From the NCBI GenBank assembly GCA_038087875.1, contig CM075994.1, forward strand, positions 8,124,001-8,188,000: a stretch of 64,000 nt of DNA. The letters are read 5' to 3'. This document shows positions 1,407-44,885 of this stretch, piece by piece. A program made the position numbers and the translations under genes. Position 1 is the first letter of the stretch. Each line of letters starts with the position of its first letter. The notes under the pieces are model-generated. The model was not told the DNA's origin, did no database searches, and saw only the letters and a program-made list of their open reading frames with translations. The stretch is from Malacoraja senta. Its lineage: Eukaryota.

Positions 1407-1494
1407 AGTTTCCCAAGTTTGATCTACGGATAACCCCAGACTATTGGTACTTCATGGTCAACAGTGATACATTCTTACTCACTATCCAAGTGGC
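1407..1494 (+). CDS. Gene A exon (C4 exon 7 equivalent, start of MG3): FPKFDLRITPDYWYFMVNSDTFLLTIQVA
   Basis: ttttctttgcag| ... GC|gtgagt; phase 1-2; resembles the C3/C4 VLPxFEVxITP motif. Confidence 0.9.
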
Positions 1495-1610
1495 GTGAGT
1501 AACAGCTTCACATCCTCCTGCACTTTCAGGGGTCTAAGGGGTATTTAAAGTTATAGAGTCACACAGTGTGGAAACAGGCCCTAACTTGCCGAACATGCCT
1601 CATCTACACT

Positions 1611-2010
1611 TAGTGTTGCCAACTGTCCCATATTAGCCGGGCCATCCCGTATATTGGGCTAAATTGGTTTGTCCCGTACGGGACCGCCCTTGTCCCGTAT
1701 TTGACTGCTATTACTCTGGTCGAGGGGACTGTCGGGTCGGAGCGCCACGTCCGGCCCCGCCTCACCTGTCCCGACGTAGTGCAGCCCATGGAGTGCAGCA
1801 GCAGCAGCGCCTCGCCCGTGGCCCCGTCGGTCGGCAGCCCGGCCAGCTGTCCGACCTTCGGACCTTCGCTTACCGCCGACACCACCACCCCTCCTTCTCA
1901 TGGCTGATCATCGGTTCATGAGTTGGATGGGGTGCCGGACTTTGCGCGCGACATTGCGCGGCCCGGGGCCAAAACTCCTCAGCCGGCCCGCCGGCTGGGC
2001 TTTGTGTGTG
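1611..2010. mobile_element. GC-rich hAT-like MITE, partial copy
   Basis: TAG(T)GTTGCCAAC end; near-identical to 21752-22273 and 40391-40920. Confidence 0.8.
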
Positions 2011-2294
2011 GCCGACATCCCTTCACACCTAAGATCGACATAAAATGCTGGAGTAACTCAGCGGGTCACTGGATAGCTTACATATTGTGTCGAGGCCCTT
2101 GTTCAGACTGAAGAAGGGTCTCGACCCGAAACATCACACCATTCCTTCTCTCCAGAGATGCTGCCTGTCCCGCTGAGTTACTCCAGCGTTTTGTGTCTGT
2201 CTTCGGTGTAAACCAGCATCTGCAGTTCCTTCCAACACTTTCCCTCCAATCCAATCTTATCCATGTACCTGTCCAAATGTTTTGTTTTAATTTT

Positions 2295-2578
2295 AGTTTA
2301 GTTTAGAGATACAGCGTGGAAACAGGCCCCTTCGGCCCACCGATCCCCGCACACTAACACTACCCTACACATACACTAGGGACAATTTACAATTTTACCA
2401 AAGCCAATTCACCTACAAACCTGCACGTCTTTGGATTGTGGGAGGAAACCGAAGATCTCGGAGAAAACCCACGCAAGTCACGGGGAGAGCGTACAAACTC
2501 CGTACAGACAGCACCCGTAGTCAGGATCGAACCGGGGTCTCTGGCGCTGTGAGGCGGCAACTCTACCGTTGCGCCACC
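2295..2578 (-). mobile_element. tRNA-derived SINE (HE1/V-SINE type); one of more than 20 copies or fragments in the window
   Basis: A box GGTGGCGCAnCGG and B box GGTTCGATCC on the - strand; (CTAAA)n tail. Confidence 0.85.
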
Positions 2579-2615
2579 TTGTGGTCACCTTCCATTTTGT
2601 TTATTTTCTTTGCAG

Positions 2616-2715
2616 GAATAAAGTGGACGGTGCTTTGAATGCCAATGTCACCTTTGGGATATCTCCAATCTCCGGTCCGAAGGTACCTTTACAACAACTG
2701 GATCAACATCTGCAG
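2616..2715 (+). CDS. Gene A exon (exon 8 equivalent, MG3): NKVDGALNANVTFGISPISGPKVPLQQLDQHLQ
   Basis: ttttctttgcag| ... CAG|gtgggc; phase 2-0; AxVxFG motif. Confidence 0.88.
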
Positions 2716-3300
2716 GTGGGCACCAACGGTCTACGATACCATAGGATGCGATAGAACTTTATTTATCCCAGGAGGTAAATTGATGAGGGAAATCTTTGGT
2801 GACTCTCGGACTACCCTTGATCGGACTTTGCTGGCTTTACCTTGCACTAAACGTTATTCCCTTATCGTGTATCTGTACACTGTAAACGGCTCAATTGTCA
2901 TCAGGTATTGTCTTTCCGCTGGCTGGTTATTAATGGAAATATTAGTGTGTGTAGGATAACGTTAATGTACGGAGGTCGCTGGTCGGTGCGGACCTGATGG
3001 GCCGAGTGGCCTGTTTCCGTGCTGTATCTCTAAACTAAACTAAACTTCTCATCACACCAGCATCGTGGTCCAGTATATAGAGCAGTAGAGGGAAAACAGC
3101 ACTGAAGACAGACACCAAACGCTGGAGTAACTCAGCGGGACGGGCAGCATCTCAGGAGAGAAGGAATGGGTGACGTTTCGGGTCGAGACCCTTCTTCAGA
3201 CTGAGAGTCGGGGGAGGAGGAATCGAGAGATATAGACGGTCATGTAGAGAGATACAGAAGAAATGAATGAAAGATATGCAAAGTAACGATGATAAAGGAA

Positions 3301-3899
3301 GTATGGGAGCAAAGAGGTCCTTCTGCAGTTGTACAGAGCCCTAGTGAGACCACACCTGGAGTATTGTGTGCTGTTTTGGTCTCCATATTTGAGGAAGGAC
3401 ATTCTTGCTATTGAGGGAGTGCAGCGTAGGTTTACAAGGTTAATTCCCGGGATGGCTGGACTGTCATATGCTGAGAGAATGGAGCGGCTGGGCTTGTATA
3501 CACTGGAATTTAGAAGGATGAGAGGGAATCTCATTGAAACATATAAGATTATTAAGGGTTTGGACACGCTAGAGGCAGGACACATGTTCCCGATATTGGT
3601 GGAGTCCGGAACCAGGGGCAACAGTTTAAGAACAAGGGGTACGCCATTTGGAACAGAGATGAGGTAAAACAGTTTCACCCAGAAAGTTGTGAATCTGTGG
3701 AATTCTTTGTCTCAGAAGGCAGTGGAGGCCAATTCACTGGATGCTTTCAAGAGAGAGTTAGATAGACCTCTTAAAGATAGGATATGGGGAATAGGCAGGA
3801 ACGGGGTACTTATTGCGGATGATCAGCCATGATCACAGTGAATGGCGGTGCTGGCTCGAAGGGCCGAATGGCCTACTCCTGCACCTGTTGTCTATTGTC
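3301..3899 (+). mobile_element. CR1/HER1 LINE 3' fragment inserted into a Penelope 3' fragment (~3105-4035)
   Basis: LYRALVRPHLEYCV...VQRRFTRLIPG; flanks are continuous Penelope tail sequence. Confidence 0.9.
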
Positions 3900-4528
3900 T
3901 AGGCCATTGTTAGCTGTGTGCTAGGTGAAAACAAGTTACAGACAATGAGACTCAACAAGACAACTTTGAAATTGGTACAACGACTTGGGTGGGGGAGGGA
4001 CGGCGAGAGAGGGGATGCAAGGATTACTTGAAGTTAGGCACGGAATGCCTCTTGGGAGCAGGCCCTTCGGCCCAACCTGTCTGTGCCGACCAAGATGCCC
4101 CATCTGCCCTCCACTGCTCTGGATGGATGGGAGGGAGGTATTCGGGATGGGATTGACCAGCTGAGGTCCAGAGGAGGTTTACAAGAATGCTTCCAGGAAT
4201 GAGTGGGCTAGCATGCGATGCCTTCTGCCATCTCCGCATAACCCGTGACACCCGTTCCAATCAAGAATTTGTCTATATCTGCCTTACCAATACCCACTGA
4301 CTTGGCCTCCACAGCCCTCTGTGGCAAAGAGTTCCACAGATGGACTACCCTCTGACTAAAGAAGTTGACTTGGAGTTAGAGAAATCAATATTCATTGATT
4401 TGAGCCCTTCGGCCCAACTTGCTCACACCGACAGACATGTCCCATCTACACTAGTCCCACCTGCCCGCGTTCGGTCCATATCCCTCTAAACCTGTCCTAT
4501 CCATGTACCTGTCTAAACGTACCGTTAA

Positions 4529-4765
4529 AGGGCCTGTCCCACCTGGCGATTTTTTTCAGCATCTTATCAGTGTCGCCAAAAGTCTTTGAACATTTCAAAA
4601 TCCAGAACATTTCAAAAACATTGCGACACTCGAAAAAACATCATACGCCATCACGCCGCGTCACGGCGCCTCACCGCCGCGTCACGCTGCTACATTTCGG
4701 TGGCCTAGTACGTTAGTCAATGACGCCAGCAGTCGCCGAAAAAATCGCCAAGTGGGACAGGCCCT
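4529..4765. mobile_element. PIF/Harbinger-like MITE
   Basis: TIR AGGGCCTGTCCCAC...GTGGGACAGGCCCT; TAA TSD. Confidence 0.85.
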
Positions 4766-5032
4766 TAAACGTTGGTATAGCCCCAGCCTCAACCCCTGTA
4801 CCTCCTCCGGCAGCTCGTTCCATACACCCACCGCCCTATGTGTTAGAAAGTTACCCATTGGGTCCCTATTAAATCTTTCCCCCCTCACCTTAAAACTATG
4901 TCCTCTGGTTTTCGATTCCCAAACTCTGGGCAAGAGACTCTGTGCGTCCACCCGATCTACGTATGACCTGAATTTTACCAGGCATGATTCCTGTACTCGA
5001 CGGCTGTTTGATGCTTTGCTTTGCCCCATTAG

Positions 5033-5159
5033 GTGAGGAACGGAAGTGCCCCTGTGATCCTACAGAGGGCAGAACTTCTTCACAGCATACAGAAGACTGG
5101 AAACATGGACAGGTTCATCGGCAGCACCTTGTACATCGCGGCAGAGGTGTCGGACGGCA
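5033..5159 (+). CDS. Gene A exon (exon 9 equivalent, MG3): VRNGSAPVILQRAELLHSIQKTGNMDRFIGSTLYIAAEVSDG
   Basis: ccccattag| ... A|gtaagt; phase 0-1; GxxLYIAA motif (C4 GLRLYVAA). Confidence 0.92.
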
Positions 5160-5375
5160 GTAAGTACCTCCCTCCACCAAGCTGGTCCACACCTCTCCAC
5201 GTGGCACCTACACTCACGGGCCCTGAGAGGCAAGAGTGTTCTATTGCCACGTCCCAGATAGAACAACGACATTCTGACTCGCTGCAGCACGACAGAATAT
5301 ACAAACATAGTACTCTGTAAACACTCTCCAATGTAAACTTTGTAACCAATATGATACATGAGAAAATAAGTTCAC

Positions 5376-5428
<53 letters not shown>

Positions 5429-6065
5429 ATATGTGTGTGCGTGTGTGCATGTATGCATGTGTTGTGCATGTACATATGTGTGTGCGCATGTATATGTGTG
5501 TGTGTGCAGATGTATGTGTGTGTGTGCATGTATGCATGAGTGTGTATGTACATATGTATGTGTGCATGTATATGTGTGTGTGCATGTATTCATGTGTGTG
5601 TGTATTTACATATGTGTGTGTGCATGTATGTGTGTGTGCATGTATGCATGTGTGTGTGTATGTACATATGTGTATGTGCATGTATATGTGTGTGTACATG
5701 TATGCATGTGTATGTGTACATATGTGTGTACATGTATTTGTGTGTGCATGTATGCACGTGTGTGTGTACGTACATATGTGTGTGTGCATGTATATGTGTG
5801 TGTGCATGTATGCATGTGTGTGTATGTACATATGTGTGTGTGCATGTATATGTGTGTGTGTGTATGTATGTGTGTATATATATGTGTGTGAATATGTATG
5901 TGTATATGAATGTATGTGTGTTTGTAGGTACATATGTGTGTATGTTTATGTATATGTGTGTATGTATGTATATGTGTGTATGTATGTGTCTATGTGTGTG
6001 TATGTATATGTGCGTATGTGTGTGTATATGTGTGCGTGCGTACGTGTGCATGTATACGTGTGCGT
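5376..6065. repeat. Degenerate (TA)/(TG)/(CATG) microsatellite
   Basis: direct inspection. Confidence 0.95.
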
Positions 6066-6203
6066 GTTGGTTGGTATACATAAACTGAACATTTTCTCAT
6101 TTAATATTCTGTTATATATATACATAAATTAAGCAAGAAAATTAGCAGTATATAATATAACATAATATTATATAATATTATATAATAATTATATATTATA
6201 TAA

Positions 6204-6640
6204 TCTATATACTTTTAAAACTCTGTGTGTGTGGGTGTATGTCATTTTGATTTTGCCTTTGATTCGTTACTCCGCGAAAACCAGACGCAAAAACACCGAG
6301 ATTTTTACCATTTCGCTAGCGATTTTACTTTTACCTTCGCAAATCCACTCCTCATTAAATTTAGTCATGTTTCTGTACACATTTTAAATAAAATCCTTCA
6401 CACCCCCCCCCCACTCAGTCATTTTTTCGCCTCCCGCTGGCCACCTTCTCATCGCGTGCCCCACGCGACCATAACGGCTGCTGCCGCCTGGCTCTCCTCC
6501 ACTTCCCCCCCCCCCCACACCCGGCCCGGCTCTGTCCCGCTGGCGGAAGCCACAGATCGGCTGGTCCGCCCGCTCCTTTTCGCCGTCCTCGCTGGCGGCC
6601 CGCAGGCTCACTCGGGATCACGCCCGCCCGCCCACTCCAC
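6204..6640 (+). mobile_element. Non-autonomous Helitron-like 5' portion, followed by a (CA)n-type tract to ~6941
   Basis: A|TCTATATACTTTTAAAACTC start shared with the element at 63357. Confidence 0.55.
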
Positions 6641-6898
6641 ACACATATATATACACATTTATATATACATATATATACACACACACGCGCACACACACTC
6701 ACGCACACACACGTACACACACTCACGCACACACACGTCCACACGTTCACGCACACGCACACACTCACGCACACACACTCACTCACACACACGTACACAC
6801 GCACACACACTCACGCACACACACACGTACACACACTCACGCACACGCACACACACACGTACACACAAACATACACACAAACACACACATACACATGA

Positions 6899-6943
<45 letters not shown>

Positions 6944-7070
6944 AATCTAAACTCATCTAAACTAAACAAGGCCGATTGCCAACATTTCTCTCGAGTGCTG
7001 TGGGATGTTTCACCGAATGAAAGGGGTTGGTCAAATAGGTTAACGGGTTTGTGTTGTTATATTTCTGCAG

Positions 7071-7183
7071 AACACACCGAGAAGAAGGTTGTGGACAATA
7101 TAGCGTTCCGGCTCTCTCACTTCAACATCAGCTTCACATCAATGAAACCCTATTTCACACCAGGAGCTCGATTTTATATCCCG
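7071..7183 (+). CDS. Gene A exon (exon 10 equivalent, MG3/MG4): HTEKKVVDNIAFRLSHFNISFTSMKPYFTPGARFYIP
   Basis: atttctgcag| ... CCG|gtacaa; phase 1-0; YFxPGxxF motif. Confidence 0.92.
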
Positions 7184-7292
7184 GTACAAATGTGTTTATT
7201 ATGGAATATTGTTTATGCGTGTGTGACTGTGTGTGTGTGTGTGTGTGTCCGTGTATGTGTGTGTGTGCGTGTGACTGTGTCAGTGTCAGTGT

Positions 7293-7600
7293 GTGACCTT
7301 ATGACATGACCTTATGCCATGACCATATGACCGTAAGACATGACCTTATGACCTTATGCCATGAGGATATGACCTTATGCCATGACCATATGACCTTAGG
7401 ACATGACCTTATGACGTGATCATATGACCTTAGGACACAACCTTATGACGAGATCATATGACCTTAGGACATGACCTTATGACCTTAGGACATGACCTTA
7501 TGACATGATCATATGACCTTATGACATGATCTTATGATTACCATATGACCGTAGGACATGACCTTAGGACATGACCTTATGACATGACCATATGACCTTA
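7293..7600. repeat. (ATGACCTT/ATGAC) minisatellite; also at ~8815-8915 and ~9297-9545
   Basis: direct inspection; resembles an expanded LINE 3' tail. Confidence 0.9.
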
Positions 7601-9613: not shown

Positions 9614-9787
9614 ATCTCCGTGACCTATCCCAATGGATCCCCCGCCATCAACGTGTCGCTGCATGTCAACCTCACCATCGTAGAGGAAGAGGTGATCAAG
9701 GATTCGATTGAAGGGACAACGGACCAGCTCGGCGAGATGATCTTCTCATTGACGGTTCCTGTAAAAGCGCACATTCTCAACGTCACG
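9614..9787 (+). CDS. Gene A exon (exon 11 equivalent, MG4): ISVTYPNGSPAINVSLHVNLTIVEEEVIKDSIEGTTDQLGEMIFSLTVPVKAHILNVT
   Basis: ctttacag| ... ACG|gtacgt; phase 0-0; VTxPxGSPA and TDxxG motifs. Confidence 0.93.
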
Positions 9788-12753: not shown

Positions 12754-12945
12754 GCCAGCGCTGGAAGTGGGTCCGGCCAGACTGAGAAGAAGCACGGGAC
12801 GGTGGAGAGACACGTGTCTGACAGTGGGAGGTATATGCACATCAATGTACCTCAAGCACTCTTGTACCCTGAAGATGCCATCACCGTCCACCTGACGGCT
12901 CTGGGTCTGCTCTCTGACGATGACGTCCAGTACTACTACTACATG
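12754..12945 (+). CDS. Gene A exon (exon 12 equivalent, MG4/MG5): ASAGSGSGQTEKK...RYMHINVP...DVQYYYYM
   Basis: long pyrimidine tract and ctcag| ... ATG|gttagt; phase 0-0; ends in YYYM as C4 does. Confidence 0.93.
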
Positions 12946-13220: not shown

Positions 13221-15128
13221 CAGTGCATTCAGAAAGTATTCAGACCCCTTCACTTTTTCCACATTTTGTTACGTTACAGCCTAATAGCCCCATCCCACGG
13301 TACGAGTTCATTCCAAGAGCTCTCCTGAGTTTGCCCTGATTCGAACTCGGAGATTTGGCCGGTAATGGCCGCTCATCGGTACTCGGGGCTCTCGTGGACA
13401 TTTTTCAACGTTGAAAAATATTCACGAGTCTTCCCGTGTTACCTGCCATTAGCGAGTCTTCCCGAGTAGCTGCCGTTAGTGTTACGAGCCGCTAAGAGAC
13501 GTCCCCGAGCTCCGACGTACCCGCTACATTCATTCTCCGTGCTTACCACGAGTTTGGAATGAACTCGTACCGTGGGACAGGGCTATTATTCTAAAATGGA
13601 TTCAATTCACTTTTTTAATCATCAATCTACACATAATACCCATAATAAAGAAACAAAAACAGGTGTTTAGAAATGTTTGCAAAGTAATCAGAAAGAAATA
13701 ACTGAAATATCACATTTACTTAAATATTCAGACCCTTTGCTATGACACTCAAAATTGAGCTTAGGTGCATCCTGTTTCCATTGATTATCCTTGTGATGTT
13801 TCTACAACTCGATTGGAGTCCACCAGTGGTAAATTAAATTGATTGGACATGATTTGGAAAGGCACACACCTGTTTTTATAAGGTCCTACAGTTGACAGTG
13901 CATGTCAGAGGCAAAACCAAGCCATGAAGACGAAGGAATTGTCCGTAGACCTCCGACACAGGATTGTGTCGAGACACAGATCTGGGGAAGGGTATAAAAC
14001 AATTTCCGCAGCATTGCAGGTACTGAAGGGCACAGTGGCCTCCGTCATTCTTGAATGGAATAACTTTAAAACCACCAGGACTCTTCATAGAGCCGGCCGC
14101 CCGGCCCAAACTGAGCAATTGGGGGAGAAGGGCCTTGGTCAGGGAGGTGACCAAGAACCCGATGGTCACTCTGACAAAGCACCAATTCCTCTGTGGAGAT
14201 GGGAGAACCTTTCAGAAGGACAACTATATCTACAGCACTCGACCAATCAGGCCTTTATGGTAGAGTGGCCAGACGGAAGACACTCCTCAGTAAAAGGCAC
14301 ATGACAGCCCGCTTGGAGTTTGCCAAAAGGCACCTAAAGGACTGTCAGACATGAACTCTTTGGAATTGAACTCTTTGGCTTGAATGCCAAGCGTCACGTC
14401 TGGAGGAAACCAGGCACCGCTCATCACCTGGCCAATACCATACCTACGGTGAAGCATGGTGGTGGCAGCATCATGCTGTGGGGATGTTTTTCAGTGACAG
14501 GAACTGGGAATCTAGTCAGGATTGAGGGAAAGATGAACTGAGCAAAGTACAGTGAGATCCTTGACGAAAACCTGCTCCAGAGCGTTCCGGGGCGGAGGTT
14601 CACCTTCCAACAGGACAACGACCCTAAGCACACAGCCAAGACAACGCAGGAGTGGCTTTGTGACAAGTCTGTGAATGTCCTTGACTGACCCAGCCAGAGC
14701 CCGGACTTGAACCCGATCGAACATCTCTGGAGGGACCTGAAAATAGCTGTGCATCGACGCTCCCCATCCAACCTGACAGAGCTTGAGAGGATCTGCAGAG
14801 AAGAATGGGAGAAATGACCCAAATACAGATGTGCCAAGCATGTAGCGTCATACCCAAGAAGACTTGAGGCTGTAATCGCTGCCAAAGATGCCTCAACAAA
14901 GTATTGAGTAAAGGGTCTGAATACTTACAGTATGTACATGTGATACTCCAGTTATTTCTTTTTAATTAATTTGCAAAAATTTCTAAACACCTGTTTTTGC
15001 TTTTTTATTATGGGGTATTGTGTGTAGATTGGTGATTAGAAAAAAGAATTTAATCCATTTTAGAATAAGGTTGTAACATAACAAAATGTGGAAAAAGTGA
15101 AGGGGTCTGAATACTTTCTGAATGCACT
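13221..15128 (+). mobile_element. Tc1-family DNA transposon (IR/DR type), near full length; transposase pseudogene ~13924-14910
   Basis: Long inverted repeats starting [59 protein letters not shown] and [11 protein letters not shown] motifs; stops and frameshifts. Confidence 0.95.
13285..13585. mobile_element. Harbinger-like MITE nested in the Tc1 left inverted repeat; partial related copy at ~39132-39420
   Basis: TIR TAGCCC..TCCCACGGTACGAGTTCATTCCAA; TAA/TTA flanks. Confidence 0.85.
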
Positions 15129-18995: not shown

Positions 18996-19190
18996 GTACT
19001 CGGTAAGGGCAGGACGCTGGACATCCAAAGGGTGGAGAGAACGTCAGAGACCTCGTTTGAGCTGCTCATCACCACAGCCATGGTGCCTTATTTCCGCATC
19101 GTGGCTTATTACCCCGTGAACAACGGACGAAGGTGGAGCATTGTGGCCGACTCAGTGCGTGTGGAAGCGGAGAGTCTATGTGATACCAAG
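18996..19190 (+). CDS. Gene A exon (exon 13 equivalent, MG5): VLGKGRTLDIQR...MVPYFRIVAYY...IVADSVRVEAESLCDTK
   Basis: ctgtgcag| ... AAG|gtgggc; phase 0-0; PxFRxVAYY and VADSV motifs; retains the interchain-disulfide Cys. Confidence 0.95.
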
Positions 19191-23190: not shown

Positions 23191-23204
23191 ATTCCCAGTT
23201 TCAG

Positions 23205-23345
23205 GTGCACTCGGTGTCCCACCTGCCGGATCTTCACCAGCTCCAGCTGACGGTCCTGTCTGACACTCCAGCCCAGATCTTCGTGAAGACCACGGATATG
23301 AGGCTGAAGCCTTGGGAGGGAGACGACTCCATCACCCACAGGAGG
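23205..23345 (+). CDS. Gene A exon (exon 14 equivalent, MG6-beta/LNK): VHSVSHLPDLHQLQLTVLSDTPAQIFVKTTDMRLKPWEGDDSITHRR
   Basis: tttcag| (alternative in-frame acceptor giving start 23199) ... AGG|gtaagg; phase 0-0; divergent but in the expected position. Confidence 0.8.
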
Positions 23346-24591: not shown

Positions 24592-25335
24592 AAGAGTCTC
24601 AGTGGATGAGTCTAAGAGTCTGTGTAAGAGTGTCTAAAAGAGTCTTAACGTCAGAGAGAGTCCAAGAGTCATGGAGTCAGACAGCTTGGAAGCGGGCCTA
24701 TCCCACCTTGCCCACACTGACCAACATGGCCCATCTACAAATGCCCCACCTGTCCGCACATGGGCTATATCCCTCTAAATCGTTCATATTCATGTACCTG
24801 TCCAAATACCTCTCAAACATTGTTTAGTTTAGTTCAGAGATACAGCGCGGAAACAGGCCCGTCGGCCCACCTGGTCCTCGCCGACATTAACACCATCCTA
24901 CACCCGCTGGGGACAATTTTTACATTTACCAAGCCAATTAACTTACAAACCTTTGGAGTGTGGGAGGAAACCGAAGATCCCGGAGAAAACCCACGGGGAG
25001 AACGTACAAACTCCATACAGACAGCACCCGTAGTCGGGATCGAACCCGGGTCTCCGGCGCTGCATTCGCTGTAAAGCAGCAACTCTACCGCTGCGCCACC
25101 GTGGCCGCCGGTTGTTCCTCAGCTACCTCCTCTGGCGGCTCGTTCCACACACCCGCCACCCTCTGTGTATAAAAGTTGCCCCTCAGGTTCCTATTAAATC
25201 TTGCCCCCCGCCCCCCTCACCTTAAACCTATGGAGAAAGACACCACATGCTGGAGTAAACCCTCTGTCAGGCAGCTTCTCTGGAGAGAAGGAAAAGGTGA
25301 CTAAAGAAATTCCTCCTCAACTCTTTACTAAAGGT

Positions 25336-26424
25336 CACTCTATCCACTACAAACCTACCGACTCCCATGGCTATCTGGACTACACTTCTTCCCACCCTGC
25401 TTCCTGTAAGGACTCCATCCCCCACTCCCAATTCCTCCGTCTACGCCGCATCTGCTCCCAGGATGAGGTGTTCCACACCAGGGCATCCGAAATGTCCTCA
25501 TTCTTCAGGGAACGGGGGTTCCCCACCTCCACCATAGATGAGGCGCGCACCAGGGTCTCTGCCATACCCCGCAACACTGCTCTCCCTCCCCACCCCCCCA
25601 CTCACAACAAGGGCAGAGTCCCCCTAGTCCTCACCTTTCACCCCACCAGCCGTCACATACAACAAGTGATCCTCCGTCAGTTTCGCCACCTCCAACGTGA
25701 CCCCACCACTCGCCACATCTTCCCATCTCCCCCCATGTCTGCGTTCCGCAAAGACCGCTCCCTCCGTAACTCCCTTGTCAATTCTTCCCTTCCCTCCCAT
25801 ACCACCCCCTCCCCTGGTACTTTCCCTTGCAACCGCAAGAGATGCAACACTTGTCCCTTCACCTCCCCCCTCGACTACATTCAGGGACCTAAGCAGTCAT
25901 TTCAGGTGCGACAGAGGTTCACCTGCATCTCCTCCAACCTCATCTATTGCATCTGCTGCTCTAGATGCCAGCTGATCTACATCGGTGAGACCAAGCGGAG
26001 GCTTGGCGATCGTTTCGCCGAACACCTCCGGTCGGTCCGCAATAACCAACCTGGCTCAGCACTTCAACTCCCCCTCCCATTCCGTATCTGACCTCTCTGT
26101 CCTGGGTCTCCTCCATGGCCACAGCGAGCAACACCGGAAATTGGAGGAAAAGCACCTCATATTCCGCTTGGGCAGTCTACATCCTGGGGGCTTGAACATT
26201 GAATTCTCCCAATTCTGCTAGCCCTTGCTGTCCCCTCCCCTTCATCAGCCCTCTGGTTGTCTCCTCCCCTCCCCCAGCCGTCGGGCTCCTCCTCCGCCTT
26301 TTTTCCTTTCTTCTCCCCACCCCCTATCAGTCTGAAGAAGGGTTTCGGCCCGAAACGTTGCCTATTTCCTTCGCTCCATAGATGCTGCTGCACCCGCTGA
26401 GTTTCTCCAGCATTTTTGTGTACT
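25336..26424 (+). mobile_element. Penelope-like element, 5'-truncated (RT thumb plus GIY-YIG endonuclease)
   Basis: YKPTDSHGYLDYTSSHP; IYCICCSRCQLIYIGETKRRLGDRFAEH; 12-bp direct repeat TTTACTAAAGGT on both flanks. Confidence 0.92.
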
Positions 26425-26630: not shown

Positions 26631-26760
26631 GTGTTTGAAGATCTGAATTCGACCGATATTGGTCTGTCATCTGGAAGTGGCAGTAATCCTGCAAGTGTCT
26701 TTAAGGATTCTGGATTAATCTTCCTCTCCAATCTAATGACGCCATTTCCAGTGCCAGTTG
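26631..26760 (+). CDS. Gene A exon (exon 15 equivalent, LNK): VFEDLNSTDIGLSSGSGSNPASVFKDSGLIFLSNLMTPFPVPV
   Basis: tttggcccag| ... G|gtaaga; phase 0-1; aligns to C4 VFEAMNSYDLGCGPGGG...VFQAAGL; not in the ORF track. Confidence 0.92.
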
Positions 26761-28101: not shown

Positions 28102-28143
28102 TTTTAAATTTGAAGCAGAGGCAGGAGCGCTTGTGGAGAAATG
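28102..28143 (+). CDS. Gene A 42-nt exon (position of C4 exon 16): (V)LNLKQRQERLWRN
   Basis: tttcttgccttccag| ... G|gtaagt; phase 1-1; unique sequence island between repeats. Confidence 0.72.
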
Positions 28144-28760
28144 GTAAGTTTGTTAAATAACATGCTCAGTGGTAGGATCGCAGAAGAATAGAACACGGGG
28201 TAATTAGTTTAGAGATACAGCGTGGAACAGGTCCTTCGGCCCACTGAGTCCACACCGACCAGCGATCACCGCGTTCACACACAAGTCCTACATTATCCCA
28301 CTTTCTCATCCACTCATTACACACTAGGGGCAATTTACAGAGGGGCCGATTAACCTGCAAACCCGCACGTCTTTGCAGAGTGATACAGCGTGGAAACAGG
28401 CCCTTCGGCCCAACTTGCCCACACTGGCCAACATGCCCCATCTACACTAGTCCTGCCTCTATTTTGGCCCCTATCCCTCCAAACCTGACCTATCCAAGTA
28501 CCTGTCTAACTGTTTCTTAAACGATGGGATAGTCCCAGCCTCAACTACCTCCCCTGGCAGCTCGTTCCATACACCCACCACCCTCTGTGTAGAAAAAGTT
28601 ACCCCTCAGATTCCTATTAACTCTTTCTCCCCTCACTTTAAACCCATGTCCTCTGGTCCTCGATTCCCCCACTCTGGGCAGGAGACTCTATGCGTCTAAC
28701 CGATCTATTCCTCATGATTTTATACACCTCTATAAGATCACCACTCATCCTCCTGTGCTC

Positions 28761-31212
28761 TAAAGATAAAGATTTAGAAGACCCTGGTTCATACAGAGCC
28801 ATTGGGCTGTTAAATACAGATACAAAAATACTAGCAAAAACATTAGCTAGAAGATTAAGTAAATATGTTAGTAAATTAATAAATGCGGATCAAACCGCAA
28901 GAGATATTCATGCAATCAATTATTTCATTGGACGCAGAAAAAGCATTCGATCAAGTGGAATGGGACTACCTCGTTAAAGTATTGCAAACATTTCAAATGG
29001 AAGAGAATTTTATCTCATGGGTAAAACTATTATATGACAGGCCCACTGCTAGAATATTAACTAATAACATGTTGTCCCCGAAATTTCAATTATCAAGGGG
29101 CAATAGACAGGGATGTTCACTATCACCTCTGCTATTTGCTCTTGTAATAGAACCTCTAGCTGAAAGCATTAGAACACATCTGAATATCCATGGTTATAAT
29201 ACAAAATACTCAAATAATAAAATATCATTATACGCAGATGATGTACTACTATACATCACAAAATCACAAATTAGTATACCAAATATATTAAATCTAATAG
29301 AGGAATTTGGATCCTTTTCAGGATATACAATAAATTGGAATAAAAGTGAAATTATGACGATAAAACCCCAAGACTCAACACACCTGTTAAAATTCCCTTT
29401 TAAAATTGCTACAGAAAAATTTAAATATTTGGGAATTGAAATTACTAGAAAATACAAATCTTTATTTAATGCAAACTATATGCCCCTACTTAATAAATTA
29501 AACACCCTGATTAAATTTTGGAAAACTCTTCCGATGTCTTTAATAGGCCGAATAAATGCTATAAAAATGATCTTTCTACCACAAATTTTATATCTATTCC
29601 AATCAATACCAATATACTTACCAAAAAAGTTTTTTTTTAAACTGGATTCCGATATCACAAATTTTATATGGGACTATAAATCCCATAGAATTCAAAGAAG
29701 ACATTTGTGCAAACCTAAAGAATTTGGTCGATTAACACTCCCTAATTTTTTGTATTATTATTGGGCAGCAAATGTCAAAAATGTGGTTCACCTGTTGGAC
29801 AACTCTGTCCAGCAGGTGGATTGGATAGTAATGGAGAGAGAGGATTGCTCCCCTTTTAATATAGGAGCGATCCTTCTCTCACCAATAAAATTGAATAATA
29901 CAATATACAGTAAAAATCCAATTATTCATAGTACAATTAGAATTTGGAAACAAATAAAATTAACCTTAAAATTAAGAAACCTATCGCTTCTCTCTCCAAT
30001 AGTTAATAATCTGTCGTTTAAACCATCTATTATAGATAAATCATTTACACACTGGGAAAGAATAGGAATTAAAACGTTTGGAGACATGTATGAAAATGGA
30101 ATTTTTTTATCATTTCACCAACTACAACTTAAATACAATCTGAGAAGTAATCAATATTTTAAATATTTTCAAATCCGTGACTATTTGAAAAAATATACAC
30201 AAGAATATCAAAATTTGTCTCCAGACCTATTAGACGAAGCAATGAATATAAAGGCGGAATCAACTAATTTAATATCATACTTGTATAATATCATCCTAAA
30301 TATAGAAATACCATCATCCGATAGAATTAGAAGAGATTGGGAACAAGAACTAGCTATAAAAATCTCGAAAGAGAGTTGGGATAAACACTTGCTATATGTG
30401 CACAAATGCTCGATCAATGTAAGACATATTCTAATTGAATTTAAAACTCTACATAGACTATACTACTCAAAAACTAAAATAAGTAAATTTTCCCAAATGT
30501 CTCCCCCATCTGTGATAAATGTCTATCCCAAGAAGCAACTATAGCACATTCCTTTGTTTTTTGTATAAAAATTCAAAAATTTTGGAATGAAATCGTTGAA
30601 ATTTTTACAAAATTATTTAAAATAAAACTGAAACCGAACGCAGAATTGATTATTTTTGGAACAATGGAAGCCAACTTTGAGCTGACTTCGTTCCAAAAGA
30701 GTTTCCTTAATTACAGCTTAATAATGGCAAAAAAACTTATACTTAAATTCTGGAAAAACGCTCCCACACCAACGATAAAAATGTGGATTTCTAATATGTC
30801 CGAACTGTTACACCTGGATGACATGAGATTCCTCTTAGCAGGCAATTCAGACCATTTCCAAAAGATTTGGTCTCCATTTATCAACTTATTACAAGCATAG
30901 GGTGCAACATAACTTTGATAATAAATGGTTTCAGGACCTGGTGAGGGGTGTGTAAAGATACAAAGTAGGTACATCCCTTTTTATCTTATTTTACCTTCTT
31001 ATATCTTCTGTTCTTCCTTTTTCTTTCTTTTTCTTTCTCCTGATCACTCTTTCACGCACTTACTTTCTTATCTAACTCTCTCTATTTTTCCTCTTTTTAA
31101 AGTTTAAAACAAGAAGTGGTACAGGAAATGTATTATGTTATTTTTGGCTTATATCGCTGTAATGTCCATTACTTCTAATAAATAAAATATTTTTTAAAAA
31201 AAGAAAAAAAAG
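28761..31212 (+). mobile_element. L1-clade LINE, 5'-truncated ORF2 (RT plus C-terminal Cys region), degenerate
   Basis: SYRAIGLLNTDTKIL, SLDAEKAFD, GNRQGCSLSPLLF, LYADD; AATAAA and poly(A) tail; interrupts a CR1 fragment. Confidence 0.95.
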
Positions 31213-32553: not shown

Positions 32554-32613
32554 TCAAAGGACGGGCGAAGGTTATCATCACACCGAAGGACCAAGGACCA
32601 TCCGGAGATGAAG
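32554..32613 (+). CDS. Gene A 60-nt exon (position of the C4 anaphylatoxin exon 17): (V)KGRAKVIITPKDQGPSGDE
   Basis: ctctccaccccag| ... AAG|gtaact; phase 1-1; unique island. Confidence 0.68.
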
Positions 32614-34181: not shown

Positions 34182-34257
34182 TTGAATGGGTGAAGCCTCT
34201 GTTCCGAGGCACCTCAATGTGGCAGTTCAATACACCTCCGGGAAATAAAACCTTCAG
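34182..34257 (+). CDS. Gene A exon (exon 18 equivalent, MG6-alpha): (V)EWVKPLFRGTSMWQFNTPPGNKTF
   Basis: long pyrimidine tract and catag| ... CAG|gtacgg; phase 1-2; degenerate VRSxFPExWLW motif. Confidence 0.82.
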
Positions 34258-34408
34258 GTACGGACAATTCCTGTTATTCCCCTCTTCCAGGTTGGCTGCT
34301 GGTTTAGTTCTTAGCCTAGTTTAGAGATACAGCGCGGAAACAGGCCCTTCAGCCCACCGGGTCCGTGCTGACCAGCGATCCCCGCAAATTAACTACCCTG
34401 CACACACT

Positions 34409-34411
<3 letters not shown>

Positions 34412-34454
<43 letters not shown>

Positions 34455-37873: not shown

Positions 37874-37941
37874 GTTGACGTTTGACCCCCATCCCCTTGA
37901 ATCCTGGGATCTCCAGGCCCTCAGCCTCTCAGAGGAGGACG
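37874..37941 (+). CDS. Gene A exon (exon 19 equivalent, MG6-alpha): (R)LTFDPHPLESWDLQALSLSEED
   Basis: ccttgcag| ... G|gtgagt; phase 2-1; aligns to C4 [23 protein letters not shown]. Confidence 0.9.
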
Positions 37942-38389: not shown

Positions 38390-38900
38390 TTGTGCCCAAT
38401 CGGTAGAAGGATAGAGAACCTGTTCTCCATTGGTCAAAACCCCATAGTCATTGGTGGAAGGATGAAGGACCTTTTCCCTTTGGTGGATGTTGGAAACCCT
38501 GTCCTCAATTGGTGGAACAATCAACCATTGGTAGAAGGTTGGAGAGCCTGTCTCCAATTGGTGGAACTATCAAGCCCATCCTCATTGGTAGAAGGTTGGG
38601 GAGCCTGTCTCCAATTGGTGGGGAAATGGAGTACCAGTCCCCAATTAGTGGATGGACCAAGCCTATTGCAGTTGGTGGAAGGATGGAGAACCTGTCCCCA
38701 TTGGTGGAAGCATCAAAAGTCCATTACCATTGGTGGAAGGATGATGAGCCTATTCCCAATTGGTGGAATACTGGAGAACCTGTCCCTAATTGGTGGAAGC
38801 ATCAAAAGTCCATTGCCATTGGTGGAAGGCTGGAGAACCTGTCCCCCAATTGGTGGAAGAATCAAGGGCCTTTCCCCAATTGGGTGGAAGGATGAAGAAT
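38390..38900. repeat. Degenerate ~30-bp minisatellite with TTGGTGGAA core
   Basis: About 17 units with alternating GAACCTGTCCCCAA and CATCAAAAGTCCATT variants. Confidence 0.85.
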
Positions 38901-39624
38901 CTTTACAGCGCTTCCCATTCAGCGGGTATTTTTACGGCAGAGATAGATAGATTCTTGATTAGTACGGGTGTCTATAACCAGAAGTCACAGCCTCAGAATA
39001 AAAGGATGGACCTTTAGAATGGAGATGAGGAGAAATTTATTTGGTCAGAGGATGGTGAATCTGTGGAATTTATTGCCACAGATGGCGGTAGAGGCTAAGG
39101 CATTTGGGTATTTTTCAGGCAGAGATAGATAAAGCCCTGTCCCACGGTACGAGTTCATTCCAAGAGCTCTCCCGAGTTTTAAAAAAATCAAACTCGTGGT
39201 AAGCACGGAGAATGAACGTAGCGGGTACGTCGGAGCTCGTAGACATCTCATAGCGGCTCGTAACGCTAACGGCAGGTACTCGGGAAGTTTCGCTAACGGC
39301 AGGTAAGCACGGGAAGACTCGTGAAGATTTTTCAACATGTTGAAAAATGTCCACGAGAGCCCCGAGTACCGACGAGCGGCCATTACCGTAGATTTCCGAG
39401 TTCGAAAATGTCCGAGTTTGAGTTAGTTTCTTGAACAGTACGGGTGTCAGGGGTGACGGGGAGAAGGCAGGAGAATGGGGTTGAGAGGGAGAGATAGATC
39501 AGTCATGATTGAATGGCGGAGTAGACTTGATGGGCCGAATGGGCTAATTCTGCTCCTATCACTTATGACCTTGTGAAAGTATGACCTTATGACGGTATGA
39601 CCTTGGTGTGCCCTGCTGTTGAAG

Positions 39625-39749
39625 GTCTGTGCCTGGCGAGCCACATGGTTGTGCAAGCAGATGGCGTGAGGTCCCAAACGTCTGGCATGGCACATCGGGA
39701 GGAAATGAGCGGACAAGGACACCCACCGACTGGGGAGGATTTGGCCTAG
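39625..39749 (+). CDS. Gene A last coding exon (exon 20 equivalent): (G)LCLASHMVVQADGVRSQTSGMAHREEMSGQGHPPTGEDLA-stop
   Basis: ctgttgaag| acceptor, phase 1; GLCLA matches C4 GLCVA; TAG at 39747-39749; donor AAG|gtacta after 39757. Confidence 0.8.
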
Positions 39750-39764
39750 CGCAGAAGGTACTAG

Positions 39765-40328
39765 TCAAGTCAAGTCAAGTCAAGTTTATTCGTCACATAC
39801 ACATACGAGATGTGCAGTGAAATGAAAAGTGACAATGCTCGCGGACTTTGTGCAAAAAAAAAACAAAAACAAACAACAAACTACAAACAGAATGGAAGAA
39901 TAGAATCACATATTCTTTTACATATTAAATATTGTGGGCGGAAGGAAAAAAAACGGGGAAAAAACAGCAATTTTAAAAAAAGCATTCGAGTGGTCCAGTA
40001 AAGTTAGTCCCTGGTGAGAGGAGTTTACAGTCCTAATGGCCTCTGGGAAGAAACTCCTTCTCAACCTCTCTGTTCTCACAACATGGCAACGGAGGCGTTT
40101 GCCTGACCGTAGCAGCTGGAACAGTCCGTTGCAGGGGTGGAAGGGGTCTCCCATGATCTTATTGGCTCTGGAGTTGCACCTTCTGATGTATAGTTCCTGC
40201 AGAGGGGCGAGTGAAGTTCCCATAGTGCGTTCGGCCGAACACACTACTCTCTGCAGAGCCTTCTTGTCCTGGGCAGAGCATTTCCCAAACTAGATTGTAA
40301 TATTTCCGGACAAGTTGCTTTCTACTAG
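39765..40328 (-). mobile_element. Rex1/Babar LINE 3' fragment
   Basis: HPCNGLFQLLRSGKR...RRSFFPEAIR; (ACTTG)n tail. Confidence 0.85.
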
Positions 40329-40390
40329 ATGTTGGCATGGGACAGATGGGCCGAAGGGCCTGTCTCTCCCCCCCACCCCCCCAACGTAAA

Positions 40391-40920
40391 TAGGGTTGCC
40401 AACTGTCCCGTATTAGCCGGGTCATCCCGTATACTGGGCTAAATTGGTTTGTCCCGTACGGGGCCGCCCTTGTCCCGTATTTGACTGCTACTACTTGTGT
40501 CGAGGGGACTGTCGGGTCGGAGCGCCGCGTCCGGCCCCGCCTCACCCGTCCCGACATAGTGCAGTCCATGGAGTGCAGCAGCAGCAGCAGCAGCAGCGCC
40601 TCGCCCGTGGCCCCGTCGGTCGGCAGCCCGGCCAGCTGTCCGACCTTCGAACCTTCGCTTACCGCCGACACCACCACCCCTCCTTCTCATGGCCGATCGT
40701 CGGTTCATGAGTTGGATGGGGTGCCGGACTTTGCATGCGGCCCCCGGGCCAAAACTGCTCAGCTGGCCCCGCCGGCTGGGCTTTGTGTGCAGTCCAGCAC
40801 CCGGGCCAACTCATCATTCACCCAGACACGGCCGAGTCGCTCAACGAATTGCCGTGGGGAATTTGTCCCGTATTTTGACCTTTTGTCCCTTATTTGGGAG
40901 TGAGGACGTTGGCAACCCTG
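40391..40920. mobile_element. hAT-like MITE, complete
   Basis: TAGGGTTGCCAAC...GTTGGCAACCCTG; TSD AACGTAAA/CACGTAAA. Confidence 0.9.
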
Positions 40921-41424
40921 CACGTAAATGCATGAATCTGGGACTGTCTCGGAGGTTTGGTGGGCTGGGGGAAGGACGTAAAGATGAGGAAGGGCGTTTA
41001 GTTTAGTTAGTTTAGCTTAGTTTAGAGATACAGCGTGGAAACAGGCCCCTCGTCCCACCGAGTCCGCGCCGACCAGCGATCCCCGCACACTAACACTATC
41101 CTACACACACTCGGGACAATTTATACTTAAACCAAGCCAATTAACCTACAAACCTGCACGTCTTTGGAGTGTGGGAGGAAACCGAAGATCTCGGAGAAAA
41201 TCCACGCAGGTCACGGGGAGAACGTACAAACTCCGTACAGACAGCACCCATGGTCGGGATCGAACCCGGGTCTCTGGCGCTGAGAGCGCTGTAAGGCAGC
41301 AACTCTACCGGTGCGCCACCGTGCCAATACGTGTTTAATTTAGTTTAGTTTAGTTTATTGTCATGTGTACCGAGGTACAGTGAAAAAGCTTTTTCTCTGG
41401 ACTAGAATCTCTGGAGAGAAGGAA

Positions 41425-42092
41425 TAATACTAATAATAATAATAATAGATTTTATTTATATAGCGCTTTTCAAGGACTCAAAGTCGCTTTACATTGAGAG
41501 TCAAAAAACAAAACAAAATAGAGCTTTAGACAGATGCAAAGGGGAGGGGGACATGGGACTAAGGGTATACAGAGGTGAAGAGATGGGTCTTGAGGCGGGA
41601 CTGGAAGATGGTGAGGGACTCAGAATTTCGGATCAGTTGTGGGAGGGAGTTCCAGAGCCTGGGAGCTGCCCTGGAGAAGGCTCTGTTTCCAAAAGTGCAG
41701 AGGTTGGATTTCGGAATGGAGAGGAGACCAGCTGATGTGGATCTGAGGGACCGTGAGGGTTGGTAGGGGGAGAGGAGGTCAATGAGATAAGGGGGGGCCA
41801 AGTGGTTGAGGGCTTTGTAGGTGAGGACCAGGATTTTGTAGATGATCCGGTGGGAGATGGGAAGCCAGTGAAGTTCTTTGAGAACTGGGGTGATGTGGTG
41901 CCAGGATTTGGTGTGGGTGATGAGTCGGGCGGCTGCATTCTGGACCAGTTGGAGTCGGTTGATGCTGCTGGAATTAATGTCAAAGAGAAGAGAGTTACAG
42001 TAGTCCAGTCGGGAGGAGATGAAGGCATTGATGAGTCTTTCAGCAGCGGGGGGTGTGAGAGAGGGTCTGATTTTAGCAATGTTGCGGAGGTG
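41425..42092 (-). mobile_element. L2 LINE 3' fragment
   Basis: LRNIAKIRP...SRLDYCNSLL...LQLVQNAAAR...LHWLP; (TAT)n tail. Confidence 0.92.
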
Positions 42093-43467
42093 GGTGACGT
42101 TTCGGGTCGAAGAAGTCTGAAGAAGGGTGTGGACCCAAAACAACACCGATTCCTTTTCTCCAGAGATGCTGCTTGTTACTCCATACGGACAACACCCGTA
42201 GTCGGGTCTCTGGCTCTGCCAGCGCGGTAAGGCAGCAACTCCACTGCGTCACCCGAATGTTATTTAAGTCTGGTGCAGGATTCCCCAAAAGTTAATCTGC
42301 AAGTCGAATCGGTAGTAAAGAAAGCAAGCTCAATGCGAGCATTTATTTCAAGAGGGCTTGTATACAAAAAACAGGGATGTAACGCTGAGGCTCTATAAGG
42401 TCGCATTTGGAATATTGTGGGCAACTGTCTGTGCGGAGTTTGTACGTTCTGCCCCGTGACCTGCGTGGGTTTTCTCTGGGTGCTCCGGTTTCCTCCCACT
42501 CTCCAAAGACGTGCAGGCTTTTGGGTTGATTGGATTCTGTAAATTGTTCCCATTCTCTAGGATACGACTAGTGTGAATGGGTATGAAAACAAAATGCTGG
42601 AGTAACTCAGCGGGTCAGGCTGCGTCGCTGGGGAAGAAAGGAATAGGTGACCTTTCAGGGGTCCAGACCCATCTTCAGACTGAGAGCCAGAGGAGCAGGC
42701 TCGGGTTGGTCGGGTACAGACTTGGTGGGCCGAAGGGCCTGTTTCCACGTTGTATCTCTTAAATTCCACACAGGGTGGTGGGTGTATGGAACGAGCTGCC
42801 AGAGGAGGTAGTTGAGGCTGGGACTATCCCAATGTTTAAGAAACAGTTAGACAGGAACATGGATAGGACAAGTTTGGAGTGGGACTACTGTGGGCAGGTG
42901 GGACTAGTGTAACACAGAAACATAGAAAATAGGTGCAGGAGTAGGTCATTCGGCCCTTCGAGCCAGCACCACCATGCAATGTGATCATGGCTGATCATCC
43001 AGAATCAGTACCATGTTCCTGCTTTCTCCCCATATCCCTTGATTCAGTTAGAGCTAAGAGCTAAATCTAACTCTCTCTTGAAAACATCCAGTGAATCGGC
43101 CTCCACTGCCTTCTATTGCATAGAATTCCACAGGTTCACAACTCCCTGGGTGAAAATAGTTTTTCCTCATCTCATCTCAGTCCTAAATGGCCCACCCCTT
43201 ATTCTTGGGGTACAAACTCCGTACAGATAGCACCCGTTGTCGCGATCGAACCCGGGTCTCTGGCGCTGTGCGGCAACAACTCTACCGCTGCGCCACCGTG
43301 AGACCCATGCCCCTTGTCCTTCATTTTAGTTTTCGTTCATAGACGCAGCATGGAAACAGGTCCTTCGGCCCATGTAGATGGGGCATGTTGTCCGGTGCTG
43401 TATCACTCTATGACTCAAAGCTCTGGAGTAACTCAGCGGGTCAGGCAGCATCTCTGTATATCTAAAC

Positions 43468-44626
43468 CAGCCTTTCTCAACCTTATTACCCTGGGGGAAC
43501 CCTTGAAATAATTTTCACGTCCCAGGGAACCCCTACATAAAAATATCTTTATTAATCTCTTTCTTTCTCTTTCACAGACAAGTTCATAAGGCAAACATAA
43601 TATATTTTTCTGATAACTGGTGTAAGCAAAAAATAACACGTTTCTCTCAAGTTTATTGACAACACAAAATATAAGCTGAAATCAAACTGCTTGATGAAGA
43701 GACCTCATAATGAGGTTTTCATTCACACGAAAAAAAATCGACCATATCTGCGGAGTTTGCATGTTCTCCCCGTGATCTGCGTGAATTTTCTCTGAGATCT
43801 TCGGTTTCCTCCCACATTCCAAAGACGTGCAGGTTTGTAGGTTACATCGCTAAATGATGGGTAAAAATGACTAAACCACGTGGCCAGGAAGCAAAGACCC
43901 TATAGCAAGATAGACCACTCCTTCTAAATGCAATGTCCTGACGTGTAGTACGCAACGGAGCAGAACGTGGGCCTGTTTTTCATCCATTTCAGTAACCCGA
44001 CCCGACCCGACTCGCAGTGTCATCAACGTTGCGGGGGAACAGTTTGTGTTAATAAATTATAATTCTGAAAATGAGGAGAAGATTTTTACCAAAGAACTTT
44101 TCTTTTTACGAGGATGTTTCCGTAACCGGCTTCCGTCTCCGCACTAGTTATCTTTGCTCCGCTATGGGATCTTTGGTGCGGAGACGGAAGCCGGTTACGG
44201 AAATGGGGCCGAAAATTACTCATGAATCTGCCTATGACCGTACTACGTCTTTTTCGTCGAGTGGTCTATCTATAGGATCTTTGCCAGGAAGCAGAGACAG
44301 GACTGATGGAGACGGTGCATGTGTCTGTACTCGAGGGAGTCACTTGATGATACACGAATCCGTCATGTACAGCTCCTGTCCACTGACCACTAAAGGCCGT
44401 TTCACACTGGCGCTGTATAGACGCCACTAGATATGATGTCGCTCAATCTGCTAAATAGACGTCGATAAATATGCCAGATGTGTGTATAATAAAATTGCGA
44501 ATATGAAATTAAACACATAAATGACTCAAAAATGCATTTACATATGAATAGCCTATTTATCACTATTCCTCTCGGAACCCCGAGCGACCACCAGCGTTCC
44601 GGGGGAACCCCGGTTGAGAAACGCTG
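43468..44626. mobile_element. hAT (Charlie-like) non-autonomous element with nested insertions
   Basis: TIR CAGC(C/G)TTTCTCAACC; TSD ATCTAAAC/CTCTAAAC. Confidence 0.8.
43892..44283. mobile_element. P-like MITE nested in the hAT element
   Basis: TIR CAAAGA(C/T)CCTATAG; perfect 8-bp TSD CCAGGAAG. Confidence 0.7.
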
Positions 44627-44713
44627 CTCTAAACACTACAACTAAACTGGATTGCCGTTCCCGTGTCTTATCCTCACGCTGTCGACCGACCAGGCCGTTG
44701 TTCCTTATTGCAG

Positions 44714-44885
44714 GCTGATCCACTCTTGGACCTTCTGAACGGATGGATGAAGATATTGAGAAGATACCTGCGTCCTACCAGAGAGATTCCTGGAAGGCCT
44801 GGGGTTCCCAGATGGTTGGACATTGCCGCTGAGCAGAAATTGCGTCCACACGCCACTTGTAACCAAATAAAATCGTCCATGACTT
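44714..44885 (+). other. Probable non-coding terminal exon (3' UTR) of gene A
   Basis: ttccttattgcag| acceptor; unique sequence; AATAAA at 44856-44861 followed by a T/GT-rich tract. Confidence 0.6.

Follow-up and report, generated by a model that had tools for sequence, protein, structure and literature searches.

Introduction

Complement C4 is the described system closest to the gene reported here. Complement C5 has no thioester and keeps the whole alpha-chain fold, and C3c, a proteolytic fragment of C3, is a beta-ring without a thioester, able to bind CRIg and compstatin, and retains MG7, MG8 and C345C. To our knowledge, all the well-known relatives of C3, C4 and C5 retain the alpha-chain machinery. 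Here we describe gene A, a C4-like gene of Malacoraja senta that had been noticed in a first-pass annotation of a stretch of 64,000 nucleotides (positions 8,124,001 to 8,188,000 of contig CM075994.1, or C18, in assembly GCA_038087875.1; hereafter the window). Gene A encodes a signal peptide, MG1-MG6 and LNK. We put at roughly 0.93 the probability that it is an old elasmobranch duplicate of C4 whose product is a secreted, single-chain, N-glycosylated ring of MG1-MG6 and LNK, keeping the former beta-alpha disulfide, in which the anaphylatoxin has become a disordered linker and everything after MG6 has been lost.

Gene A shares with complement C4 the order of MG1-MG6 and LNK, the exon phases through the MG6/MG7 exon, the cysteine pair of the MG5 end and MG6, its position in the tree and its location in the C4 cluster. 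It differs from C4 in having no tetrabasic site in the linker and no anaphylatoxin, MG7, CUB, thioester domain, MG8 or C345C, in the loss of the LNK cysteines and in its length (769 versus about 1700 residues). Like C3c it amounts to a thioester-less beta-ring; however, C3c is a breakdown product, whereas gene A is a separate ring-only gene. Covalent attachment is lost as in C5, but gene A has also lost everything after MG6.

In human convertases, as the available passages of two structural papers describe them, C4b holds its substrate C3 mainly via MG4-MG5, with a second site made of MG3, MG6, MG7 and alpha'NT, and the protease C2b is held through C345C of C4b (PMC12847986, PMC12922740). The same passages report that the MG4-5 site buries 1309 Å2 and that compstatin disrupts this contact (PMC12847986), and that pegcetacoplan acts on the MG4-MG5 docking face (PMC12922740). 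Elasmobranch C4 isoforms were described by Nonaka et al. 2017, as cited in the accessible part of PMC10751288. The main text of that paper, in the same part, reports three full-length elasmobranch C4 genes; its table of the sawfish major histocompatibility complex (MHC) labels LOC127585877, LOC127585878 and LOC127585880 as 'C4 (partial)', a trio on which its C4 section is silent. In whale shark, c4.1.2 (721 residues) and c4.1.3 (445 residues) were left unused as incomplete (PMC7768046, available passages). Full-text literature searches returned no description of a ring-only C4, a provisional result, most subscription papers being beyond reach. The passages seen of a nurse shark plasma study (PMC9207270) do not mention gene A, nor was any passage on it met in the accessible parts of papers on shark skin and Greenland shark plasma. 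In this sense, gene A is annotated in databases and apparently unrecognised.

Structure of gene A

Gene A was rebuilt from the window and 80 kb of upstream sequence, in which positions carry negative coordinates counted from the window start. It comprises 21 coding exons for 769 residues, with no stop or frameshift across the 769 codons and GT-AG boundaries at 21/21 introns. Its features are the following:

-18605 to -1064, plus strand: coding exons 1-7, upstream of the window, with the start of the signal peptide at -18605
1407..1494, plus strand: exon 8 of 21, residues 225-253, start of MG3
2616..2715, plus strand: exon 9, residues 254-287, MG3
5033..5159, plus strand: exon 10, residues 288-329, MG3
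7071..7183, plus strand: exon 11, residues 330-367, MG3/MG4
9614..9787, plus strand: exon 12, residues 368-425, MG4
12754..12945, plus strand: exon 13, residues 426-489, MG4/MG5
18996..19190, plus strand: exon 14, residues 490-554, MG5, with Cys551, the first of the conserved cysteine pair
23199..23345, plus strand: exon 15, residues 555-603, first half of MG6
26631..26760, plus strand: exon 16, residues 604-646, LNK, the LNK cysteine of C3/C4/C5 being lost
28102..28143, plus strand: exon 17, 42 nt, at the place of the C4 exon with the tetrabasic beta/alpha cleavage site
32554..32613, plus strand: exon 18, 60 nt, Cys-free, at the place of the 192-nt anaphylatoxin exon of C4, with phases 1-1 alike
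34182..34257, plus strand: exon 19, residues 681-705, start of the second half of MG6
37874..37941, plus strand: exon 20, residues 706-728, second half of MG6
39625..39757, plus strand: exon 21, GLCLA (Cys731), 38-residue tail and TAG, homologue of the C4 MG6/MG7 exon (TTGAAG|G acceptor)
44714..44885, plus strand: putative non-coding terminal exon, proposed from splice signals only, with a good acceptor and AATAAA at 44866-44871; single-copy in the genome

The first-pass annotation had drawn the gene as 14 exons over 542 codons, spanning 1407..44885. These 14 window exons are indeed bounded by AG and GT, join in phase and are free of stops, although the redrawn boundaries give 544 codons. The frame ends where it had been placed, 38 residues past the Cys of GLCLA, at a TAG (39747-39749) that lies 8 nt ahead of a donor site. 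The span itself had to be changed: the start is 18.6 kb upstream of the window, which adds the seven coding exons, and coding stops at 39749, 44885 being the end of the putative non-coding exon. The segment from 44714 is a plausible untranslated last exon of gene A. Exons 1-7, too, carry no stop or frameshift.

The protein has an N-terminal signal peptide and 11 N-glycosylation sequons, both predicted from sequence, and no hydrophobic anchor was seen in it, so that the product would be secreted. The motif R-x-[KR]-R is absent from the linker of gene A and of its 18 orthologues (described below), its sole match being in MG5 of Narcine, and an RQER in gene A is not conserved; the product is presumably a single chain. 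The lone cysteine of MG2, Cys161 (exon -8812 to -8742), has no obvious partner and is shared with 6 of 14 orthologues.

A local caveat concerns exon 2, which is interrupted by a 1070-nt phase-0 GT-AG intron (-16200 to -15131). The frame is open only if this intron is spliced, and it has no counterpart in the neighbouring genes B and C. The sequence after its donor resembles the sequence after its acceptor, a resemblance matched in score by 0 of 2000 shuffles, as if the intron had been born from a short duplication containing AG|GT. At this split the protein is 5 residues shorter than the Rhinoraja orthologue. The N-terminal 40-45% of the protein is missing from the records of Amblyraja and Leucoraja. 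Additionally, two of the 5' exons of gene A are present again on a small contig (C2913:10259-13939), in what may be either a haplotype duplicate or a paralogue.

Comparison with full-length C4 genes

An unfiltered profile search built from 11 full-length C3/C4 proteins was run in six frames over 264 kb (the window, 80 kb upstream and 120 kb downstream). No profile match (domain E < 1) was found between 26738, in the LNK exon, and 48782, in the next gene. As a positive control, the same run recovered 16 exons of an upstream minus-strand full-length C4, including those of the anaphylatoxin (E 1e-9), MG6/MG7 (4e-16) and the thioester (2e-23); this control took in the MG7 and thioester exons, the MG8 and C345C exons of that C4 lying beyond the searched 264 kb. 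The earlier statement that exons for the anaphylatoxin, MG7, CUB, thioester, MG8 and C345C are missing ahead of the next gene is therefore borne out. A missing segment had been named as another way in which the gene could look truncated. Runs of N occur in the 264 kb only at -28148, 83503 and 107302, none of them in gene A or in the interval up to gene B, which rules out an assembly gap concealing alpha-chain exons of gene A.

Gene A and the upstream full-length C4 have identical exon phases (1, 1, 1, 2, 1) between LNK and the MG6/MG7 exon; exon lengths in this comparison were counted by hand. An anaphylatoxin with its six cysteines is not found in gene A, the 60-nt exon without cysteine contrasting with the 192 nt of C4. 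The last coding exon has the TTGAAG|G acceptor in common with the MG6/MG7 exon of C4 and diverges from it after about 10 codons.

Origin within C4

The tree was computed from the beta-chain region (590 columns, LG+C20) of 41 out of 49 aligned rows, 8 partial or redundant ones having been dropped; rows without names were labelled from BLAST and motifs. Gene A and the short gene next to it, gene B, form sister groups whose joint clade (100/100) is placed inside C4, also at 100/100. Two observations speak against a C4 origin, namely the bit scores in the profile search (315 for human C3, 294 for human C4) and the database names, which read 'C3-like'. However, a union of the short clade with C3 is rejected (p-AU 0.002 in the approximately unbiased test under LG+G4), and the description of gene A as a C4 paralogue holds. 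An origin by recent duplication from one or the other of the neighbouring full-length C4 types was likewise rejected (p-AU 0.0004 and 0.0009). The short clade as sister to all three chondrichthyan C4 types, chimaera included, is not rejected (p 0.35), and a clade of the full-length C4s that excludes the short genes is marginally rejected (p 0.043). On this evidence the duplication that founded the short genes may be older than the chimaera split, its exact position within C4 not being fixed by the tree; no named chimaera member was found among the database matches.

Orthologues in sharks and rays

Three database searches and two cluster look-ups gave short predicted proteins of the gene A type in 18 named elasmobranch species, from Amblyraja, Leucoraja, Pristis, Narcine, Chiloscyllium, Rhincodon, Stegostoma, Carcharodon, Cetorhinus, Heterodontus, Heptranchias, Mustelus, Scyliorhinus, Hemitrygon, Rhinoraja and Pristiophorus to Mobula birostris and Mobula hypostoma. 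One search was restricted to 465-1481 residues, and 15 of its 16 matches were assigned to the gene A group. Fifteen of the 18 orthologues are 753-899 residues long, the other three being without the N-terminal part, and all 18 end 16-47 residues past the MG6 Cys. Gene A is 84% identical to the Amblyraja record and 80% to that of Leucoraja, and its orthologues broadly follow the species split between sharks and batoids.

The thioester motif GC[GA]EQ occurs in none of the 19 sequences (gene A and its 18 orthologues). Pfam detected only MG-type families (MG1, MG2, MG4, A2M_BRD) in the 16 sequences scanned, with a weak A2M match in two, and its anaphylatoxin, thioester, receptor-binding and C345C families in none of them. 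The cysteine pair of the MG5 end and MG6 is invariant (16/16) and aligned with the pair cysteines of C3, where they form the beta-alpha disulfide that joins the MG6 halves; the product of gene A would keep this bond.

A full-length member of the short clade was not found in a search for longer proteins (7999 candidates scored, the best full-length one 32% identical), and in an unfiltered search of 1.84 billion representatives seven short members outrank the first full-length protein, a bird C4. The ESM Atlas gave general family clusters only. The first-pass annotation had proposed a maintained gene instead of a decaying duplicate, and the truncated, same-shaped predicted orthologues in 18 elasmobranch species support it. 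Gene A is real, intact and conserved, a descendant of C4 that is without the defining features of a working C4.

Frog 'C3-like' proteins with high query coverage were set aside as orthologues: they are full length, about 25% identical and nearer to C3 by BLAST; the tree does not include them. Four frog or fish C3-like predictions (P0014, P0015, P0067 and P0077) show no anaphylatoxin pattern and keep the downstream domains; they may represent separate losses of the anaphylatoxin in the C3 branch or annotation errors.

Predicted structure

AlphaFold2 was run on the Rhinoraja orthologue, which is 79% identical to gene A over 590 columns, with an alignment of 91 rows. The model shows a complete beta-ring, with a mean predicted local distance difference test (pLDDT) of 84.6 and a predicted template modelling score (pTM) of 0.83. 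Its second MG6 half is ordered, and the linker (661-694) and the tail from residue 757 are disordered. It thus agrees with the exon comparison and with the earlier suggestion that the truncation falls at a folding boundary, MG6 being completed before the disordered tail. The best Foldseek match was C4b in 9u61, and isolated beta chains scored a template modelling (TM) value of about 0.8 by target length. Among the structural matches are 2ice and 2qki, which we take to be C3c entries, and complexes with CRIg, compstatin, ISG65, CirpT1 and herpes gC. The Mobula paralogue B gave a model with a pLDDT of 80.9 and a disordered MG2-MG4 joint.

Possible function

Having no thioester, C345C, CUB or MG7, the product of gene A cannot opsonise covalently or form a normal convertase, as had been reasoned in the first-pass annotation. 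Its ring would keep the MG4-MG5 grip and part of the second site, and would neither hold a protease nor be cleaved nor attach to a surface. Because the first grip would remain without these activities, the ring would act in plasma like a natural compstatin, engaging C3/C3b (or C5) at MG4-MG5 in competition with the docking of substrates on convertases. The likeness to compstatin and CRIg concerns a proposed block of the beta-ring contacts of the C3 convertase (PMC12847986, PMC12922740, available passages); the molecules are unrelated and the likeness is in hypothesised function only. We tentatively propose, at somewhat less than even odds, that the product is soluble and competes at the MG4-5 face of C3/C3b. 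More tentative by a small step is the wider proposal of a subfamily descended from C4 and comprising two or three genes (A with MG1-6, B with MG1, 2, 4, 5 and 6, and a divergent third), possibly older than the chimaera split, that would act as host-encoded competitive inhibitors of convertase-substrate docking. We count in favour of a competitor that gene B has lost MG3 and retained MG4-MG5, and that A and B resemble each other most in MG5, with 47% identity (bootstrap 41-54) versus 26-37% in the other seven segments. This is not so among the three chondrichthyan full-length C4s, where MG5 has 43% and LNK 71%.

Several points weigh against this reading. The interval around the MG5 value overlaps with the ones for MG1, MG2, MG3, MG6 and LNK, and the domain limits were chosen by hand. 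Across the gene A orthologues MG4, which makes up half of the docking face, ranks with the least conserved domains (42%), and MG2 (57%) is level with MG5 (56%). The human C4b contacts Arg494 and Arg524-Leu526 are not kept as such in gene A, although the mapping was a rough one via one mammal-like C4 and shark C4s likewise do not keep them. The short clade sits on a long stem (0.83 changes per column), along which the surface may have changed to fit a different partner. The alignment behind the AlphaFold2 model included full-length C3/C4/C5, so that the fold is partly inherited from them, and the orthologues are all automated database predictions. Moreover, one contact, at MG4-5, may not be strong enough for competition with abundant C3.

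A ring-only gene kept across sharks and rays implies a function for the ring by itself, and gene A offers a natural test of the MG4-MG5 docking face in a molecule with neither protease nor thioester. Its product may regulate complement rather than kill microbes. If the competitor proposed here is real, competitive inhibition of docking would be a form of complement regulation that is not known among host proteins of the C3/C4/C5 family. The finding also corrects the inventory of cartilaginous-fish complement, in which such genes are misnamed 'C3-like' or set aside as partial, and gene B provides a natural deletion of one domain, MG3, from a ring regarded as a single unit.

It is possible, though in our opinion less likely, that the ring works outside the cascade as a binding or carrier protein for a new partner, be it the surface of a microbe, some plasma protein or receptor, or paralogue B, in A-B or A-A dimers through MG4-MG5. 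A long stem branch followed by slow change would suit such a role, and many residues are fixed in the short clade yet unlike those of C4, clustered in MG5-MG6. Genes A and B are adjacent here and have consecutive accessions in two Mobula species, and the unpaired cysteine of MG2 in gene A and 6 of 14 orthologues would also be in keeping with it. However, no domain or motif has been gained, only MG-type families being detected, and gene A remains in the C4 cluster, which in sawfish belongs to the MHC (PMC10751288, accessible part).

We give little credit to a decoy that would absorb those pathogen or parasite inhibitors of complement, or receptors, that recognise the beta-ring of C3/C4/C5, and so free the real complement. 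Many solved complexes with inhibitors and receptors use beta-chain surfaces (the CRIg, compstatin, ISG65, CirpT1 and herpes gC matches), and MG3-MG4 diverge faster than MG5 among the gene A orthologues. Nevertheless, an identity of 17-38% per domain to chondrichthyan C4 would make gene A a poor mimic, and its conservation in all the sampled elasmobranch orders is steadier than an arms race suggests.

Slightly less credible again is the opposite effect, an accessory ring that promotes complement by presenting C3/C5 to the convertase, as the extra C3b does in C5 convertases. The docking face is kept without the MG7/alpha'NT surface that repels the product in the model of PMC12847986 (available passages), but with no thioester, membrane anchor or other attachment the ring would not be concentrated on a target.

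Finally, we regard as highly improbable a decaying or mis-predicted partial duplicate, with the short proteins as annotation fragments and the gene of the skate lineage perhaps disabled at exon 2: gene C as a nearby partial C4 copy that halts after its first MG6 exon, the truncated Amblyraja and Leucoraja records, the exon 2 intron absent from the neighbouring paralogues and the filing of such genes as 'partial' or 'incomplete' (PMC10751288, PMC7768046, accessible parts) would fit it, but in 18/18 records the same Cys is followed by 16-47 residues and the end of the protein, the orthologues broadly track the shark/batoid split, no full-length clade member appeared (32% at best among the 7999 candidates, nor among the 1.84 billion representatives), and neither gap nor lesion exists across 769 codons.

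Gene B and the C4 neighbourhood

Gene A is flanked by C4 genes on C18, the C3 genes sitting on C16. The gene that begins at 46697 had been taken for another C4-like gene; the new signal-peptide exon is there, and the gene proves to be a second truncated paralogue, one without MG3. Its 15 exons (607 codons) join without a stop and run to 107142 (C18:8170697-8231142). The first three are:

46697..46761, plus strand: signal-peptide exon of gene B, from exon reconstruction
48784..48979, plus strand: exon 2, MG1
52924..53101, plus strand: exon 3, MG1/MG2, followed by 12 further exons to 107142, past the window

Gene B passes from the end of MG2 directly into MG4, keeps MG4-MG5 and has a short linker like that of gene A. 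No last coding exon was recovered for it; this exon probably lies in the gap at 107302. Records of the gene B type exist in Mobula (635 residues, two species), Amblyraja and Scyliorhinus and end 12-20 residues past the MG6 Cys; MG3 is likewise missing from those of Mobula and Scyliorhinus, and in one Mobula isoform the end is longer and unrelated. MG2 of paralogue B holds two cysteines. A database protein of 321 residues, P0166, ends 10 residues past the MG6 Cys, keeps an RAKR motif in the linker and falls inside the short clade (100/100) on a long branch, with no close match in the M. senta genome; by its sequence it is a divergent third member of this clade.

Gene C (C18:8244550-8279000) is a near copy of the full-length C4 that starts at about 8385950 and appears to stop after the first MG6 exon, with no match to an LNK exon; it is either a partial duplicate or an assembly problem. 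The three 'partial' sawfish genes are in tandem on the same strand, in the order C3-like, C4-B-like, C4-B-like, that is, the order of genes A, B and C here (PMC10751288, accessible part). We infer, from name and order only as given in that part, that LOC127585878 is the Pristis orthologue.

Apart from A, B and C, the 7.9-8.7 Mb interval of C18 contains three or more C4 genes that have alpha-chain exons, and a tandem cluster of about three C3 genes occupies 4.36-4.70 Mb of C16. In the region from -30800 to -27949, the upstream minus-strand full-length C4 shows no MG1-MG4 exons ahead of the gap at -28148, where the scaffold is probably mis-joined or incomplete. Relics of repeats lie in introns at 13880-14900, 25200-26200, 28640-30900, 54400-58700 and 59370-61360 of the window; from the look of their translations they are presumably Tc1/mariner-like, two retroelement-like and minus-strand DIRS-like pieces, together with a 2-kb GT run.

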